A DNA stretch of 30,573 bases from an uncultured Candidatus Saccharibacteria bacterium. Its GTDB lineage: Bacteria; Patescibacteriota; UBA1384; JAMDBS01; CAZXAY01. The stretch lies in the NCBI GenBank assembly GCA_964638435.1, contig CAZXAY010000010.1, positions 1 through 30,573 on the forward strand. Reading direction: 5' to 3'. The position numbers and the translations under genes are program-made. Positions 1,101 to 30,573 of the stretch are shown piece after piece; positions within the stretch are counted from its first letter, which is position 1, and every line of letters starts with the position of its first letter. Below the pieces are notes generated by a model that worked only from the letters and a program-made list of their open reading frames with translations, was not told the DNA's origin and did not search any database.

Positions 1101-1607
1101 TTATTCGTTTTTTCTGTCAATGCGATCAAGATCGCGTTTTTTTATTACTTCACGTTTATCAAAGAGTTTTTTACCCCTTCCTAACCCAAGCTCCACTTTT
1201 GCTTTGCCATTTTTGAGATAGATTTTTATGGGGATTAGCGTTAGATTTTTTTCTTGAGTTTTACCAATTAATCTACTTATTTCTTTACGGTGTAAAAGAA
1301 GCTTTCTGGTGCGAGTGGGATCACTGTCGAATACATTGATATGTGTACCTAAAAGAAATAATTCTGGTTTAGAAGTAGAAGCTGGTATTTGGTATCTAGT
1401 ATTTAGTATTTTTGATTTATTTATACTAGATACTCGCTTCTTAATACTCGCTTCTAGAATTTTAGCATAAGAGCCTGTTAAATTCACTTTCCCCACCCTA
1501 ATTGCCTTAATTTCTTTACCACTCAAAACAATGCCGGCTTCAAATGTTTCCAGGATTTCATAATTATGGTAGGCTTTTCTATTTTCACTAACAATTTTAT
1601 AACTCAT
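1101..1607 (-). CDS. smpB: SsrA-binding protein SmpB (carries an in-frame ~24-aa insertion)
   Basis: N-terminus KAYHNYEILETFEAGIVLSGKEIKAIR and the DPTRTRKLLLHRKE block match the SmpB family. An extra segment sits between SYAKIL and ELFLLGTH relative to E. coli SmpB. Confidence 0.85.
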   Translation of the reverse strand: MSYKIVSENRKAYHNYEILETFEAGIVLSGKEIKAIRVGKVNLTGSYAKILEASIKKRVSSINKSKILNTRYQIPASTSKPELFLLGTHINVFDSDPTRTRKLLLHRKEISRLIGKTQEKNLTLIPIKIYLKNGKAKVELGLGRGKKLFDKREVIKKRDLDRIDRKNE

Positions 1608-1780
1608 CTCAGTATATCATCTTTCAGAATATTTATTTTAATGTTTTTATTCTAACTAGTTAATAAGCCCAGATAACAACTTTTTAGGTTTAACACATTA
1701 GTAGTGTTAATAAATATTTAAAAACATACTGAAAGTTGTATTACTGAGTCATAACTTAATTTTACCTGATTATTTAATAT

Positions 1781-1868
1781 CTGTAAACAATTTTATCGCA
1801 AGAAAAAGCGATCGCTGTAAACTGCGATAAAATAATTTTTTGACATTTGATAATCAAAATGATAAATT
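1781..1868 (+). promoter_or_regulatory. operator-like repeat architecture plus sigma70-like promoter upstream of tmk
   Basis: Direct repeat CTGTAAAC at 1781-1788 and 1815-1822. Inverted repeat TTTTATCGCA (1791-1800) / TGCGATAAAA (1823-1832) encloses a central GCGATCGC palindrome. TTGACA at 1840-1845, 17-nt spacer, TAAATT at 1863-1868. AAGGAGG RBS at 1880-1886. Confidence 0.5.
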
Positions 1869-1891
1869 TAGATAAGTAAGAAGGAGGCGCA

Positions 1892-2575
1892 TTGAGTATT
1901 CGAAAAAAAGGAAAACTTATCGTGATAGATGGGGTTGATGGATCGGGTAAAAAAACTCAGACTGATATTTTGGTACGCCGATTAATCAAAGAGGGATATA
2001 AAGTAGAGGTTGCTGATTTTCCACGTTATGGTGAGCGATCTGCAGCACTAGTTGAGGATTATTTAAACGGTAGGTTTGGAGATGCTAAGTCTGTTAATTC
2101 TTATGCTGCCTCAATTTTTTACGCTGTAGATCGCTATGCCGCATCATTTGAAATTAAAAAATGGTTAGATCAAGGGAAAATTGTTATTTCTAACCGTTAT
2201 GTTTCGGCCAATATGGGGCATCAATGTGGGAAATTAAAAACTAAAAGTGAAAAGCAAATTTTTTTAAAATGGTTGAATAATCTTGAGTTTGAAATATTTG
2301 GTATTCCTAAACCTGATAAAAATATCCTATTGTACGTTGAACCAGGAATAGGTCAGAAATTAGTGGATAAAAAAGGCCATCGCGATTATATTGGTGGAAC
2401 CAAGCGTGATATTCACGAAGCAGATATTAATCATTTGAGGGATGCAGTTAATACTTATTTATACGTTGCCAAAAAATATCATTGGGATGTAATCAAGTGT
2501 TTTAAATCTGATAAAATGCGTCATATCGAAGAAATATCCCAAGACATTTGGCAATTAGTTATGGAGGTTTTATAG
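1892..2575 (+). CDS. tmk: thymidylate kinase (TTG start)
   Basis: P-loop LIVIDGVDGSGKKTQ. Lid/DR(Y) region AVDRYAAS. Length 227 aa. AAGGAGG lies 5 nt upstream of TTG. Confidence 0.85.
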   Translation: MSIRKKGKLIVIDGVDGSGKKTQTDILVRRLIKEGYKVEVADFPRYGERSAALVEDYLNGRFGDAKSVNSYAASIFYAVDRYAASFEIKKWLDQGKIVISNRYVSANMGHQCGKLKTKSEKQIFLKWLNNLEFEIFGIPKPDKNILLYVEPGIGQKLVDKKGHRDYIGGTKRDIHEADINHLRDAVNTYLYVAKKYHWDVIKCFKSDKMRHIEEISQDIWQLVMEVL

Positions 2576-2602
2576 CAATTATAAAAAAGTTACGGATATT
2601 CA

Positions 2603-2723
2603 AACCTGTTCCAACTTCGTCCTTCAATATGTTCAGGACGCCCTGTCTTCGACTCTGAGGGATGAGCCCTCAGGCTCAGACTCGAACGAGAGCTTGTCGA
2701 ATGGGCGGAGGTTGGTACAGGTT
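2603..2723 (+). ncRNA. candidate structured RNA / cis-regulatory leader (unclassified, multi-stem)
   Basis: GC-rich patch in an AT-rich intergenic region. Outer 13-bp stem AACCTGTTCCAAC (2603-2615) pairs with GTTGGTACAGGTT (2711-2723), one mismatch. Nested stems: GACGCCC/GGGCG, TTCGAC/GTCGAA, hairpin CTGAGGG-ATGAG-CCCTCAG, and GCTC/GAGC. No stop-free coding potential on the + strand. Confidence 0.4.
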
Positions 2724-2758
2724 CAAAATAACATAACTTTTAATAAATAAGGAGTGGG

Positions 2759-5048: not shown

Positions 5049-5800
5049 TAACCTGTTATCACCCTCAAGGTGATAACAGGTTATCTACGATATTTTGTTT
5101 ATATGAATTATAGAAAACAACCATTAGTTAATGAAGGAATCTATCATATTCTGAATAAGAGTATCGCAGAGTATAAAATTTTTAGTAATAATTTTCACTT
5201 TAGAAGAATGATGCAATTATTAGTTTACTATCAATATGCCAATGTACCAGTAAGATATTCTTATTTTATTAAGCTTGATCCACAAGAGCAAGATGAAGTA
5301 TTTAGATATTTACAGATAAAAAATGATAAACTTGTTGATATAATTTCCTATTGCCTTATGCCTACCCATTATCATCTTATTTTAAAACAGTTATTGAAAG
5401 GTGGTATTTCAAAATATATCAATTTAATCCAAAACAGCTATGCAAAATATTTTAACATAAAACACGATCGAAATGGCCCATTATGGCAAGGGTATTTTAA
5501 AAATGTATTAGTAGATACAGATGAACAACTTTTGCATTTAACTCGCTACCAACACATAAATCCAGTATCTGCTGGTTTGGTAGAGGATCCTATTGAGTGG
5601 GAATATTCATCTTATAAAGAATATATAGGGAAAAAACAAACTAAAATTTGTAGTTATAATAATTTAATTGATGTCAGACCAAAAATATATAAAAGATTTG
5701 TTGAAAATAGAATTAGTTATCAGCGAGAATTAACAAGAATTAAAAAAATTATATTAGAATAAAAATATCAAACTTAACCTGAAATCACCTTGAGGGTGAT
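5049..5800 (+). mobile_element. REPtron-like unit: RAYT / IS200-like Y1 transposase gene flanked by inverted palindromes
   Basis: Left end: perfect 15-bp stem palindrome TAACCTGTTATCACC-CTCAA-GGTGATAACAGGTTA at 5049-5083. Right end: ATCACC-TTGAG-GGTGAT at 5784-5800. Its loop is the reverse complement of the left loop, and it is preceded by the same TAACCTG..ATCACC arm. Confidence 0.7.
5103..5762 (+). CDS. REP-associated tyrosine transposase (Transposase_17 / IS200-like HUH-Y1)
   Basis: HUH motif in YCLMPTHYHLIL. GPLWQGYF. C-terminal RYQHINPVSAGLVEDPIEWEYSSY matches the RAYT signature NPV.AGLV..P..W.WSS. The ORF-track GTG start at 5070 lies inside the left palindrome, so the ATG at 5103 is preferred. 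Confidence 0.75.
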   Translation: MNYRKQPLVNEGIYHILNKSIAEYKIFSNNFHFRRMMQLLVYYQYANVPVRYSYFIKLDPQEQDEVFRYLQIKNDKLVDIISYCLMPTHYHLILKQLLKGGISKYINLIQNSYAKYFNIKHDRNGPLWQGYFKNVLVDTDEQLLHLTRYQHINPVSAGLVEDPIEWEYSSYKEYIGKKQTKICSYNNLIDVRPKIYKRFVENRISYQRELTRIKKIILE

Positions 5801-5834
5801 ATAAGGTAGGCAATGAAATTTATGTGAGTAAAAT

Positions 5835-7232
5835 ATGGGGAGAAATATGGCAAATAATACAAGAAGAATCTACCAATTAGATCAAAATTTAACACCCGAG
5901 CAAAGGATTGTTACTTTTGCTAAGTGCTCGCGTAGTGCTGAACCATTTGATAAAATCGCCAAAGAACTAACCGACGAAAAAGCAGCCAAATTTAATCAAC
6001 GTTATGTTGTAGCTTTTGGTCACCTGTCAGTGGCCGAGCATGCTGCTTTTAATATCGCTATGGAAGACGTTTCGATATTGGCGACAAAGATAATTGAGGA
6101 TAATCGCTTGGGATCGTTTACCGAGCGTTCCACCCGTTATCAAGTTTATGATAAAAATAGTTATTATAAACCAGATAGTATTATGAATTCAAAATATGCT
6201 GATGTCTATGGAAAAGCTGGTAATTATCTTTTTGAAATTTACGAAAAACTTTATCCGATAGTATGCGAGGATATGAAAAAAAACTACCCAAAAACTAATG
6301 ATAATATTAAAACCTACGACACAATGATTAAAGGTAAAACATGTGATGTAGTAAGATATATTCTACCTGTAGCAACTCTAACAAGTCTAGGTATGACGCT
6401 CAATGCTCGCAATTTAATTTACGCAATTAACAAAATGATAACCAGCCCGCTTGGTGAGATGCAAGATATCGGTAATGATCTAAAAAAGATTGCCGAAAAG
6501 TCTATTCCTACAATTGCTAACATGATTAAACCAATTAAATATCTAGCTGAAACCTTGCCAGAATTACAGAAAACAGTTAGTCGGATATCATTTAATCAAA
6601 CAGATATTAAGCAAGAACCAGTTACTCTAGTAGATTATGATGTTAATGCTGATGATAAATTAGTTACAGCATTAATTTATAGGTTTTTATCACAATCGTA
6701 TGAATCAATTAAAAATAAAGTAAGTAAAATGAGCCAAATTCAAAAAGAGGATATTATTGATCAGGCGCTTAAAAACCGCTCAGCTATGGATCAACCACTT
6801 CGCGAACTCGAGCATATTTATTATACCTTTGATATTTTAATGGATTATGGGGCATTCCGTGATATTCAGCGGCATAGGATGTGCTCGCAAACTAATCAAC
6901 TTGTAACATGCGATCATGGTTATGAAATACCAGACAAGATTCGAGAATTGGGTGTTGAGAAAAAATATATTTCTGCTATGGACACATCACGAGAGGCTTA
7001 CGAAAAGATAAAAAAAGATTTTCCCCAAGAGGCTCAATATATTGTAGCATTTGCTTATAAAAAACGCACTCTATTCACATGGAATTTAAGAGAACTACAC
7101 CATTTTATATCTCTTCGCAGTCGCCCAGCTGGTCACGTCTCATATCGCTTAATTGCTAATCAAGTCTATGATGAACTTGCTAAAGTCCATCCACTACTTG
7201 CTAAATACATAAACGTTGTAAAAATAAAATAG
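5835..7232 (+). CDS. thyX: flavin-dependent thymidylate synthase ThyX, tandem two-domain form
   Basis: Domain 1 has HLSVAEHAAF and DNRLGSFTERSTRY (a degenerate RHR but an intact S.RY). Domain 2 has QRHRMCSQ (RHR intact, S.RY missing). Both halves carry the F.W..N.R.L..F motif (LNARNLIYAI and FTWNLRELHHFISLR). 465 aa. Confidence 0.8.
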   Translation: MGRNMANNTRRIYQLDQNLTPEQRIVTFAKCSRSAEPFDKIAKELTDEKAAKFNQRYVVAFGHLSVAEHAAFNIAMEDVSILATKIIEDNRLGSFTERSTRYQVYDKNSYYKPDSIMNSKYADVYGKAGNYLFEIYEKLYPIVCEDMKKNYPKTNDNIKTYDTMIKGKTCDVVRYILPVATLTSLGMTLNARNLIYAINKMITSPLGEMQDIGNDLKKIAEKSIPTIANMIKPIKYLAETLPELQKTVSRISFNQTDIKQEPVTLVDYDVNADDKLVTALIYRFLSQSYESIKNKVSKMSQIQKEDIIDQALKNRSAMDQPLRELEHIYYTFDILMDYGAFRDIQRHRMCSQTNQLVTCDHGYEIPDKIRELGVEKKYISAMDTSREAYEKIKKDFPQEAQYIVAFAYKKRTLFTWNLRELHHFISLRSRPAGHVSYRLIANQVYDELAKVHPLLAKYINVVKIK

Positions 7233-16344: not shown

Positions 16345-16419
16345 GGCTCGGGGACCAGGATTCGAACCTGGATTCACAGCTTCAAAGGCTGCTGTCCTAC
16401 CATTAGACGATCCCCGAGC
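16345..16419 (-). tRNA. tRNA-Gln (anticodon UUG)
   Basis: Minus-strand sequence GCTCGGGGATCGTCTAATGGTAGGACAGCAGCCTTTGAAGCTGTGAATCCAGGTTCGAATCCTGGTCCCCGAGCC. 7-bp acceptor stem. Anticodon arm GCAGC-CTTTGAA-GCTGT. T-arm CCAGG-TTCGAAT-CCTGG. No encoded CCA. Confidence 0.85.
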
Positions 16420-16582: not shown

Positions 16583-16592
16583 ATATATGCTT

Positions 16593-17014
16593 TAGTAGTA
16601 AAGATTATCGCTCCGATGTAAATCGGGGAGGAAAGTCCGAGCACTTCAAACAATTTACCACGTGTAAACGTGGCCGTCGCAAGACGAGGGAATAGTGTCA
16701 CAGAAATTATACCGCCTAACTATTGCTTGCAATAGTGGTAAGGTTGAAATCGTGAGCCCCTCAATTAAGAGGGGATAGCCTCGAACATTCGGGGTAAAGT
16801 AAGAGCTCACGCGTTTAATTGGTAACAATTAACTGGGTAAACCCTAAATGGTGCAAGTCAGGTGGGTCCGATCATCATCAAAAAGTTAGTTTGGCTCGAT
16901 GTCCACGGATCCTGACGCTTAGACCTCGCCTTTATAGGCGGGGCAAGATAGATGATAATCTAACCTTTTGAGGTAACTCATAGGTAAACAGAACTCGGCT
17001 TATTTACTACTACA
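16593..17014 (+). ncRNA. rnpB: RNase P RNA (bacterial type A)
   Basis: P1 pairing AGTAGTAAA (16596-16604) with TTTACTACT (17004-17012). P4 5' strand GGAGGAAAGTCCGAGC. Conserved ACAGAAATTATACCGCC. GGTAAAGTAAGAGCTCAC. P4 3' strand ACAGAACTCGGCTTAT. Confidence 0.85.
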
Positions 17015-17022
17015 GTATAACA

Positions 17023-20251: not shown

Positions 20252-20422
20252 CAAGATATTAACCTAAAAAATTCTTCTTGTCAAGAAGATTGCTAAATCT
20301 TAAATCATAAATCTAAAATCTAAAATTGTTTAGAGTACTTTTTTGAGATATTGGCCAGTAAAAGAAGTTTTTACTTTAACAACTTCTTCTGGAGTTCCTT
20401 GAGCAACAATTTGTCCGCCCAT
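20252..20422. repeat. 171-bp direct repeat (left copy) = target duplication of the IS
   Basis: Identical by eye to 22026-22196 (171 bp). Includes a copy of the last ~94 nt of uvrA plus downstream sequence. Confidence 0.85.
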
Positions 20423-22025: not shown

Positions 22026-22196
22026 AAGATATTAACCTAAAAAATTCTTCTTGTCAAGAAGATTGCTAAATCTTAAATCATAAATCTAAAATCTAAAATT
22101 GTTTAGAGTACTTTTTTGAGATATTGGCCAGTAAAAGAAGTTTTTACTTTAACAACTTCTTCTGGAGTTCCTTGAGCAACAATTTGTCCGCCCATG
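22026..22196. repeat. 171-bp direct repeat (right copy), contiguous with intact uvrA 3' end
   Basis: Matches 20252-20422. Confidence 0.85.
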
Positions 22197-24601: not shown

Positions 24602-24691
24602 ACGGTCCTTAAAACAAATTCAAATTTCAAAACTCAAATTTTAAATCAAATCCAAATGTTTAAATGTTTTAAAATTAGAATTTAATTAATT

Positions 24692-24724
24692 GACCTGCCC
24701 GACATGCCAGTCATGGCAGGCGGG
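24692..24724 (+). repeat. REP-like nested-hairpin element (part of a ~80-bp repeated block at 24653-24733)
   Basis: GACCTGCCCGACATGCCAGTCATGGCAGGCGGG. Outer stem CCTGCC/GGCAGG and inner stem TGCCA-GTCA-TGGCA. The block is repeated at 30501-30573, with an inverted copy at 10931-10964. Confidence 0.8.
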
Positions 24725-24882
24725 TTAAAAATTTATAATTTCAAATTTGAATTTTATTCATTTGTTGAATTACTTTTCCAAGCATATCATATTTGTCAAG
24801 ATTATGCAAGTAGAGCAATACCCTTGCCAAAAGATAAAAAAATGTTATAGTAAAAACAAGTAAAATAAATATTTATTAATCA

Positions 24883-30450: not shown

Positions 30451-30532
30451 AATCTCCTCATAAAAATTCAAAATTCAAATTTGTAACCAAATTCAAAATT
30501 CAAATGTTTTAAAAATTGGAATTTAATTAATT

Positions 30533-30565
30533 GACCTGCCCGACATGCCAGTCATGGCAGGCGGG
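30533..30565 (+). repeat. REP-like nested-hairpin element, third copy (block 30501-30573)
   Basis: Identical to 24692-24724. The flanking AT-rich block CAAATGTTTTAAAA.TTGGAATTTAATTAATT is shared with 24653-24691. Confidence 0.8.
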
Positions 30566-30573
30566 TTAAAAAT

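Follow-up and report, generated by a model that had tools for sequence, protein, structure and literature searches.

A GC-rich palindromic element in a tmk-kinase spacer of Candidatus Saccharibacteria: probably a nested selfish repeat built around a 45-nt unit

The window studied here is the whole 30,573-nt stretch of contig CAZXAY010000010.1 (assembly GCA_964638435.1), from an uncultured Candidatus Saccharibacteria bacterium, and it carries a GC-rich element at positions 2603-2723, in the spacer between tmk and a nucleotide kinase gene. In this study, we report that this element is probably a nested selfish palindromic repeat and not a dedicated RNA. The best reading is that of a nested, non-autonomous palindromic mobile element, similar to Rickettsia palindromic elements (RPEs), repetitive extragenic palindromic (REP) sequences or miniature inverted-repeat transposable elements (MITEs). 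Three layers may be distinguished: a 45-nt GC-rich imperfect palindrome (2646-2690), which belongs to a multi-copy family extending over the Candidate Phyla Radiation (CPR); an inner inverted repeat (GCCC..TTCGAC / GTCGAA..GGGC), of a shell type that recurs in many genomes; and a 16-bp REP-like hairpin (AACCTGT...ACAGGTT) with the other two in its loop. The comparisons given below show a multi-copy family with copies in both orientations, tolerance in frame within essential genes, a preference for hairpin tips, a patchy distribution among orthologues and a conserved core. A preliminary description of the element, made from the sequence alone, had named three candidates. The MITE-like insertion with a structured interior, and with arms related to the palindrome flanking a REP-associated tyrosine transposase (RAYT) gene, is supported in essence, its interior being the 45-nt repeat, while the riboswitch or RNA thermometer and the small stable RNA are not.

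Extent and Conservation of the 45-nt Repeat Family

A collection with one genome per species was searched with the exact 22-mer CTCTGAGGGATGAGCCCTCAGG (2653-2674 of the window), which matched 79 genome stretches, several loci coming from the same metagenome-assembled genome (MAG) and up to 6 from a single one. Nearly all named matches were Patescibacteria/CPR, with labels of Saccharibacteria, Berkel-, Curtiss-, Levy-, Blackburn-, Doudna-, Komeili-, Moran-, Uhr-, Falkow-, Colwell- and Peribacteria and WWE3. When only the stems were specified, a metagenome scan gave at least 120 stretches among the matches listed. Neither the viral contigs (two scans) nor the plasmids gave any match to the 45-mer, so that nothing points to a phage or a plasmid as its vehicle. 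Labels from outside the CPR were found for L019 (DFBH01000072.1), an Actinomycetota (Candidatus Oleimmundimicrobium) MAG, and for L034, L040, L071 and L075, third-party assemblies named 'uncultured Gammaproteobacteria'; these are either mis-binned or mislabelled CPR contigs or a true presence outside the CPR.

The consensus block consists of a G followed by TCTTCGAC-TCTGAG-GGATGAGCCCTCAGG-CTCAGA-CTCGAA(T/C)GAG. The length was exactly 45 nt in 129 of the 141 unique copies among the matches listed, and the positions beyond the searched 22-mer were 94-100% conserved. The unit is an imperfect palindrome with stems TC-TTCGAC-TCTGAG and CTCAGA-CTCGAA-T-GA, a C/C mismatch, one bulged base and a 15-nt centre. 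Besides the variant present in the window (V1), there is a V2 form (TCATTCGAC...CTCGAAGAG) with the stem ends swapped relative to the centre, which is equivalent to an inverted centre. The centre is more variable than the stems: it was canonical in 29/122 among the matches listed, with many single-base variants, and an inverted-centre class and a 17-nt class were found in addition among the stem-only matches. When folded alone, the 45-mer is weak (z-scores of -1.5 to -2.4) and gives a heterogeneous ensemble.

The conservation of the core was compared with that of its surroundings at three orthologous or paralogous site pairs, in which the flanks shared 75-81% identity and the cores were identical at 43-45 of 45 positions. 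According to our own estimate, limited to the positions not fixed by the search patterns, about 14 core differences were expected and 3 were observed. Therefore, the core is kept or homogenised and is not simply decaying, and these pairs show that it changes more slowly than its flanks. Rfam 15 contains no model for this repeat family, and searching the literature by sequence, peptide and keyword, with subscription journals outside the coverage, did not retrieve any description of the 45-mer.

Flanking Sequences, Hairpin Tips and Composite Units

The base preceding the unit (-1) was G in 140 of the 141 unique copies, among the matches listed; position -2 was T or G, and -3 and -4 were mostly C. 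This invariant G could belong to the element itself and not to a target motif. Position +1 was A in V1 and C in V2, and thus -2 and +1 are able to pair.

Many copies were located at the tips of other palindromes. Among the filled palindromes were those split by the unit between CCTGCCTGCCGG and CAGGCAGG (empty form in L012 and L017), between ATCCTG and AGCGAAGCGAAGGAT (empty form in L068), between ATTCCCG and CGAAGGCGGGAAT, and between TTCGACAAG and CTCAGG. No target duplication was visible at the filled and empty palindrome sites, nor in the release factor RF2 gene treated below. After removal of the unit in silico, the joined flanks folded with a mean of -4.8 kcal/mol, vs. -3.4 kcal/mol in nearby controls (p = 2e-6), and the number of pairs closing around the junction was 6 or more in 46% of the copies vs. 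34% of the controls. The preference for hairpin tips is clear, but not universal.

The 45-mer is also found inside larger repeated units. In Berkelbacteria PEZW01, a ~190-nt unit delimited by TGTCATTCC...GGATGACA is present four times, with the 45-mer inside and more inverted repeats beyond, and four copies of a ~160-nt unit bounded by GGGTGTCGGGAGC...GCTCCCGACAGGCCCC, again with the 45-mer inside, are present in Blackburnbacteria. The 121-nt unit of the window is of the same design, the 45-mer being surrounded by an inner shell and this in turn by the 16-bp hairpin. It is this nesting that accounts for the strong fold noticed in the preliminary description.

Orientation and Copies within Genes

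The intergenic copies lay with and against the local gene direction in a proportion of 27:23, gene direction being a crude proxy for the replication strand. The small stable RNA that had been proposed for the element is not sustained, as there is no strand bias with respect to transcription and no promoter or terminator belonging to the element was found.

A total of 24 of 81 copies were located within ORFs of 150 codons or more, where each of the three stop-free frames is used and both orientations occur. The corresponding peptides are:

frame +2: STLRDEPSGSDS(K/N)
frame -0: SFESEPEGSSLRVED
frame -1: HSSLSLRAHPSESKT

The lack of stop codons on both strands had been taken as a symptom of a structured RNA; in fact, three of the six frames are open across the 22-mer (2653-2674), and this is a trait of the whole repeat family rather than the mark of an RNA gene. 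Host ORFs recognised by eye from their translations included those of ValRS, ribosomal protein S7, RF2, LepA, IscS, MutY, GlyRS, DNA ligase and a UvrD-like helicase. Comparison with an RF2 structure of the PDB revealed a clean gap of 16 residues exactly at the insert, and in S7 the insertion is of about 21 residues with respect to the solved structure. In three Saccharibacteria RF2 orthologues, HSTLR(D/N)EPSGSD(L/S)KS is inserted between KISG and GDFLYG, and this insert is missing in the most similar homologue of the alignment (79% identity) and in all the others aligned. Judged from these alignments, such a patchy pattern fits gain, precise loss or exchange and is typical of mobile DNA. As in elements of the RPE type, frame-keeping copies are thus found in conserved protein genes, 45 nt being equal to 15 codons.

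Some other features of the coding copies were observed. By our own count, about 19 of 21 convincing cases have xTCATTCGAx...xTCGAAGAx on the sense strand, which corresponds to V2 sense or V1 antisense; the share of this stem orientation expected from reading-frame availability is about 63% (own estimate), and the intergenic copies are unbiased. In L074 (2021-2096), 1.5 tandem 45-mers are in frame near the N-terminus of LepA/EF4 (HTHPSESKTNLSFESEPEGSSLRVED), and in L025 (about 300-400), as well as in L088, the 45-mer is in frame in the leader peptide of a type IV pilin-like protein (MKRIGLAPSSTLRDEPSGSDSNESKSRGFTLIEL...). In L067 (about 1165-2580, minus strand) and L064 (minus strand), ORFs for class I aminoacyl-tRNA synthetases stop right after the 45-mer (...SHSSLSLRAHPSESKT, followed by the stop), 10 codons past the start of the 22-mer. 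The L067 stop is in the middle of the gene, past the WCISRQ..WGHRIP motif, and this ORF could be a disrupted or split gene or an assembly frameshift. Finally, the RF2 of a Saccharibacteria MAG (P0184) has a separate insert of 8 residues, PSTSLRAG, at another site (alignment columns about 153-160). It looks like a translated palindromic module of the TTCGACAAGCTCAGG type, itself a host of the 45-mer, and other small palindromes may enter proteins in frame as well.

The Element in the tmk-Kinase Spacer

The spacer is delimited by two genes:

1892..2575, plus strand, tmk (thymidylate kinase), Pfam PF02223
2759..3355, plus strand, AAA_18-type nucleotide kinase, identified with Pfam

These belong to a cluster with the order tmk, kinase, dCMP deaminase, dUTPase, HD hydrolase, RAYT-like Y1 transposase and ThyX, with SmpB upstream, and the homologues of the downstream kinase come from Patescibacteria/CPR bacteria. 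The promoter scan gave a promoter-like site before tmk, at 1840-1868, and found neither a promoter nor a terminator in 2576-2758. Therefore, transcription probably runs from tmk through the element into the kinase gene, giving a single transcript. The element ends 35 nt before the kinase start, and the Shine-Dalgarno sequence AAGGAG, at about 2750, falls outside the structure.

The G+C content is 0.53 over 2600-2699 vs. 0.28-0.40 in the flanks, in agreement with the enrichment noted in the preliminary description. The closed multi-helix fold that it drew was likewise recovered, its helices being re-read both in the sequence and in the computed folds. The minimum free energy of the element is -53.8 kcal/mol, identical on the plus and minus strands, with z-scores of -4.21 and -4.79, respectively, and none of 200 shuffled sequences was equally stable. 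On paper, the predicted structure is thus real and beyond chance. The equal folding of both strands is a consequence of the element being a palindrome, which already hints at a symmetry at the DNA level. The parts of the element are:

2603-2618 with 2708-2723: outer helix spanning 16 positions, interrupted by one T/T mismatch (2610/2716) and including one G-T wobble, from sequence and folds
2603..2618: 5' arm of the outer hairpin, AACCTGTTCCAACTTC, REP-like, its first 8 nt common to the RAYT-flanking hairpin
2619..2639: side hairpin GTCCT-TCAATATGTTC-AGGAC within the outer hairpin, GTCCT (2619-2623) pairing with AGGAC (2635-2639)
2640..2645: 5' side of the inner shell, GCCC-T-G, GCCC (2640-2643) pairing with GGGC (2703-2706) in the fold
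2646..2690, plus strand: 45-nt core, variant V1, TCTTCGAC TCTGAG GGATGAGCCCTCAGG CTCAGA CTCGAACGAG
2648-2653 with 2696-2701: TTCGAC/GTCGAA helix, from sequence and folds
2655-2673: hairpin CTGAGGG-ATGAG-CCCTCAG, from sequence and folds
2691..2707: 3' side of the inner shell, AGCTT-GTCGAA-T-GGGCG, from the folds
2708..2723: 3' arm of the outer hairpin, GAGGTTGGTACAGGTT, from sequence, folds and the comparison with L001

The 13-bp outer helix described earlier (2603-2615 with 2711-2723) turned out to be the core of the 16-position helix, and the GCTC...GAGC pairing is present in the minus-strand fold. The base G2645 corresponds to the invariant family base just before the 45-mer. The side hairpin at 2619-2639 is specific to the composite of the window and was not seen at other loci. 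As for the shell, the arrangement AGC..GTCGAA..N', with covarying closing bases, was found in L018, L029, L037, L041, L051, L053, L054, L063, L073 and L081.

The element has the characters of a MITE in being small (121 nt) and non-coding, with terminal inverted repeats formed by the 16-bp arms. A possible 4-bp TCAA occurs on either side of ACCTGT...ACAGGT; a target duplication of fixed length is a trait of MITEs. No second copy was detected within the 30.5-kb window by a repeat search and an nhmmer profile.

Known RNA families did not account for the element. The Rfam scan of the whole window at the gathering threshold gave nothing in the element region, and a permissive scan of 2500-2850 (E up to 10) gave only a 12-bit chance match to CRISPR-DR22; no credible match thus came from the Rfam check that the preliminary description had suggested. 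The only Rfam/ARAGORN matches in the window were RNase P RNA class A (16592-17017, plus strand, 174.6 bits) and a tRNA-Gln with anticodon TTG (16345-16417, minus strand). The earlier statement that the element is not a tRNA agrees with ARAGORN, which called none at the site; the minus-strand GTTCGAGTC that had been noted is present and is the reverse complement of 2680-2688. The lack of fit to the hammerhead was confirmed by eye, as the core motifs mismatch.

Other candidates were rejected. The core motifs of a box C/D K-loop and of a bulge-helix-bulge intron were unfit by eye, and the R''/R' consensus of an integron attC site was missing. A DNA-uptake sequence was discarded given that the copies are too few and are insertions, not motifs built by mutation, and a casposon-like 14-bp duplication given that 45 + 14 nt are incompatible with the intact MutY ORF of L078.

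Orthologous Spacers in Related Genomes

Six relatives (L001, L002, L003, L203, L204, and L205) were obtained by means of the kinase homologues, with kinase identities to the window of 86% in L001, 83% in L002, 81% in L003 and L204, 79% in L203 and 73% in L205. The order SmpB-tmk-kinase is kept in L002, L003, L203, L204, and L205, with spacers of 55-302 nt that do not contain the element; in L002, L203, and L205 its place is occupied by a hairpin resembling a terminator, after which comes a TTGACA promoter box. At the orthologous spot of L001 there is only a plain hairpin, CTGTCGCAACCTC-A-GAGGTTGCGACAGGTT. The contig opens with CTGTCGCAACCTCAGAGGTTGCGACAGGTT, continues with the same downstream flank as the window and starts exactly k-1 = 30 nt into the hairpin, k being 31 in the Logan assemblies. 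Such a start is as expected where a contig breaks at a repeated sequence, and the break gives indirect support to the L001 hairpin being a repeat. The differences between the arms of L001 and the window keep or improve pairing (C-G to G-C, T/T to C-G, and T-G to C-G).

It follows from the plain hairpin of L001 that the 90-nt interior was inserted into, or lost from, the loop of a REP-like hairpin. The conservation in relatives that had been put forward as a check is not found, as five of them have the same tmk-kinase spacer without the element. The element being missing or reduced in these spacers, a riboswitch or thermometer dedicated to the kinase is largely refuted.

The RAYT Gene and Its Hairpins

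A RAYT-like gene is located 2.3 kb downstream of the element, between two hairpins:

5050..5082: REP-like hairpin AACCTGTTATCACC-CTCAA-GGTGATAACAGGTT, immediately 5' of the RAYT gene
5070..5762, plus strand: RAYT-like Y1 (HUH) transposase gene, likely ATG at 5103, Pfam Y1_Tnp E = 2.4e-7
5776..5807: REP-like hairpin AACCTGAAATCACC-TTGAG-GGTGATATAAGGT, 3' of the RAYT gene and inverted with respect to the first

Its match to the NCBIfam model of REP-associated tyrosine transposases (E = 1.2e-16) is under the curated cut-off. Both hairpins begin with AACCTG, and their loops are reverse-complementary. A RAYT gene between two inverted hairpins is the classical RAYT/REP arrangement, and the window contig (30.5 kb) carries three such REP-like hairpins. 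The sharing of AACCTGTT between the outer arms and the RAYT-flanking palindrome, already indicated in the preliminary description, is correct: they have AACCTGTT (8 nt) at the start and ACAGGTT (7 nt) at the end in common, and differ over the rest of the stem. For this reason, we read the outer helix as a REP-like hairpin belonging to the RAYT system, with another element, made up of the 45-mer and its shell, lodged in the loop.

Mode of Mobility and Alternative Explanations

In the mechanism that we propose, the 45-mer would travel as a single-stranded DNA hairpin mobilized in trans, either by cut-and-paste or by copy-in, without target duplication, and would be inserted beside a ..CC(T/G)G motif, preferentially in exposed hairpin loops. 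This movement could be due to an IS200/RAYT-type Y1/HUH transposase or, alternatively, to gene conversion triggered by an endonuclease (homing); the single-strand HUH-type route is put forward only tentatively, as one possibility that is rather doubtful by itself. In the lineage of the window, a nested element would have been inserted into the tmk-kinase spacer, where it may just be transcribed with tmk and the kinase, as a hairpin between the two cistrons. If expression is affected at all, this would be incidental and not the work of a dedicated sensor.

Several observations weigh against a selfish mobile repeat. Its mobility is deduced from comparison, and the patchy RF2 insert can also be explained by precise loss or by recombination between strains. 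The intergenic copies have no orientation bias (the 27:23 given above), unlike the replication-linked bias of IS200/IS605-type elements, and the 45-mer alone has no strong fold. The AT-rich copies, mostly from Saccharibacteria (L078, L020, L030, and L067), have flanking direct repeats of ~14 nt, such as AATCTTGAATTTTG in L078, which are outside a model with no duplication. A 14-bp duplication would break the MutY frame in L078, and this ORF is intact; these repeats are therefore read as pre-existing short tandem repeats or parts of a composite. The near-identity of the core over distant CPR lineages is odd for a purely selfish repeat and might reflect a function or frequent horizontal spread. 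With regard to a mobilizing enzyme, tblastn with the RAYT protein of the window found a homologue near 1 of 205 loci of the 45-mer (L007), and the RAYT is not the general mobilizer of the 45-mer. All-against-all clustering of the 1,786 ORFs located within 3.5 kb of the copies revealed no widely shared gene family and no mobilizing enzyme, and neither a parent autonomous insertion sequence (IS) with the same ends nor a recurrent neighbour family was found. Finally, for the 121-nt composite and the outer hairpin, the window organism is covered by one contig of 30.5 kb.

The top cluster of neighbours was a small GIY-YIG protein, present at 9 of ~195 loci, which is about chance level according to a rough estimate of our own. 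GIY-YIG genes are found directly downstream of the 45-mer and in the same orientation in L189 (182-516), L140 (437-831), and L063 (986-1507), and in two of the window's relatives, L003 (2599-2877) and L204 (3613-3885), such a gene comes next after the kinase. GIY-YIG is a candidate partner through this direct adjacency, with weak overall enrichment.

Among the alternatives to a selfish repeat, the one closest to the gene context is a cis-regulatory RNA, that is, a riboswitch or thermometer in the 5' leader of the kinase that would respond to a nucleotide-related signal for the dNTP (deoxynucleoside triphosphate) operon. The element is on the coding strand, 35 nt before the kinase start and within a nucleotide-metabolism cluster, has a strong predicted fold and is probably transcribed with tmk. 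This explanation has become extremely improbable: five relatives lack the element and the closest (L001) has a plain hairpin, the core appears in about 200 unrelated contexts among the matches listed, in both orientations and inside ORFs, no Rfam match was obtained at E up to 10, and there is neither a terminator nor a sequestered ribosome-binding site. An RNA function could reside instead in the 45-nt core, as a new self-cleaving ribozyme or protein-binding motif housed in lineage-specific repeats; hammerhead and twister ribozymes are known to be carried in repeats. Such a module would explain why the core is far better conserved than its flanks even in protein-coding hosts, with conserved mismatches and bulge and variable, covarying peripheral helices, why several C-to-T loop variants would retain G-U pairs on the plus strand, and why one stem orientation is dominant in coding hosts (the 19 of 21 counted above). 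We consider it improbable, since no Rfam family matches, the intergenic copies are unbiased relative to transcription, the 45-mer has no single well-defined fold, and the loop is found in both orientations with respect to the stem (V1/V2 and the inverted-loop class), which is hard to reconcile with a precise active site; nor does the core contain variation able to demonstrate covariation.

The near-identity of the core over very distant CPR lineages, its independence of orientation and the lack of copies in the viral contigs and plasmids scanned would also suit a host-beneficial DNA signal (for uptake, replication/segregation or nucleoid binding), recognised by a shared CPR machinery and kept by selection. 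Uptake sequences occur about once per kb. A handful of copies were seen in each genome (at most 6 loci in a MAG), which seems too few for uptake or segregation. Moreover, the copies are discrete 45-nt insertions with respect to orthologues instead of motifs built by point mutation, and they lie within other selfish-looking palindromes, in composites that have multiplied within genomes, all of which leaves this signal a slim chance. A similarly low probability is given to the whole 121-nt unit being a REP, or a REPIN, of the neighbouring RAYT, with the interior as a spacer and the RAYT as the mover of the 45-mer. The AACCTGTT shared with the RAYT-flanking hairpins, the proximity of the RAYT-like gene and the behaviour of the L001 hairpin as a repeat in assembly speak for it. 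Against it, the 45-mer is present at no fewer than 200 loci (>=200), only one of which (L007) has a RAYT homologue in the fetched stretch, the RAYT-flanking hairpins do not contain the 45-mer, and L001 has the hairpin without the interior. For these reasons, the core seems to be an element distinct from the outer hairpin.

Relationship to Known Repeats

By analogy, the element would work most like RPEs and like REP/REPIN or MITE repeats, membership being demonstrable in none of them. RPEs, which Ogata and co-workers are said to have reported in 2000, are reportedly short palindromic repeats of a small AT-rich genome, located between genes and in frame in conserved genes. They add a short hydrophilic peptide, have no transposase gene of their own and are mobilized by a mechanism that is unknown; to our knowledge, they measure about 100-150 bp and are confined to Rickettsia. 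The likeness lies in this behaviour, that is, in palindromic repeats both intergenic and in frame in conserved genes, and not in membership. In contrast to RPEs, the unit described here is of 45 nt, its core is nearly identical over a superphylum and it is usually nested in other palindromes. With REPs and REPINs it shares the imperfect palindrome of tens of nt, the conserved mismatches, the multi-copy state and the mostly extragenic location, as well as the RAYT-like gene of the window between inverted hairpins, the first 8 nt of which recur in the outer helix. As far as we know, REP families are species-specific, co-occur with their own RAYT and are rarely inside ORFs, whereas the 45-mer crosses phyla and has a RAYT homologue at one of 205 loci.

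The MITEs comparable to the element, such as Correia of Neisseria, ERIC, RUP, and BOX, are also small non-autonomous repeats bounded by inverted repeats, the composites being of 121 and ~160-190 nt; when transcribed, often together with their neighbours, these MITEs fold into long hairpins. They differ in that there is here no clear target-site duplication and no known parent IS, and in that the shared part is the interior and not the termini. Yeast mitochondrial GC clusters, such as the optional 46-bp cluster in var1, are palindromic, GC-rich sequences of ~45 bp in an AT-rich genome, which vary between strains, can sit in frame and in some cases have short AT-rich direct repeats. The 45-mer resembles them in size, GC-richness and in-frame seats, but they belong to another domain of life and no sequence relation is expected; their own mechanism (gene conversion) is partly known. 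Lastly, the -1 G and the CC(T/G)G 5' flank suggest a likeness to palindrome-associated transposable elements (PATEs), derived from IS200/IS605, which are hairpin-based and use a short motif without target duplication, and a single-stranded DNA intermediate would fit hairpin-loop targets. PATEs have two different hairpin ends and a replication-linked strand bias, vs. a single 45-nt palindrome here, with no gene-direction bias and no cognate TnpA found.

Other Repeats of the Window

Additional repeats were observed elsewhere in the window. Three copies of a GC-rich 28-mer, ATTCTTACCCCGCCTGCCATGACTGGCA or its reverse complement, are present (10923-10950, 24705-24732, and 30546-30573), two of them being within a 111-nt direct repeat (24622-24732 / 30463-30573) that is 86% identical; it looks like another family of small palindromic repeats of this genome. 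There is also a perfect direct repeat of 170 nt at 20253-20422 and 22026-22195, 1,773 nt apart. The ThyX ORF (5835-7232), of 465 aa, contains two stretches of the Thy1 domain and is about twice as long as expected for ThyX, which suggests a tandem duplication.

Significance

For the window, these results remove a false riboswitch or small RNA lead, and nested selfish palindromes explain its odd GC-rich fold. Beyond it, a 45-nt unit is nearly invariant over the CPR and sits in frame in RF2, S7, aminoacyl-tRNA synthetases and LepA, which provides a handle on the survival of mobile DNA in ultra-small, streamlined genomes. In practical terms, the 45-mer is a possible marker of CPR contigs for binning. 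It is also a likely cause of assembly breaks, L001 breaking at the REP-like hairpin, and a source of annotation artefacts, as conserved proteins acquire inserts of 15 residues and small ORFs are called that are spurious. We regard as rather unlikely, but worth stating, that the 45-mer is the recognition module of a CPR-specific mobile system, which would place a 15-codon hairpin into hairpin loops and essential genes, or a selected RNA or DNA motif. A dedicated enzyme targeting hairpin loops, if it exists, would be of mechanistic and possibly biotechnological interest, and a recognition module or selected motif would make this repeat a new class of bacterial element and not another REP or MITE.

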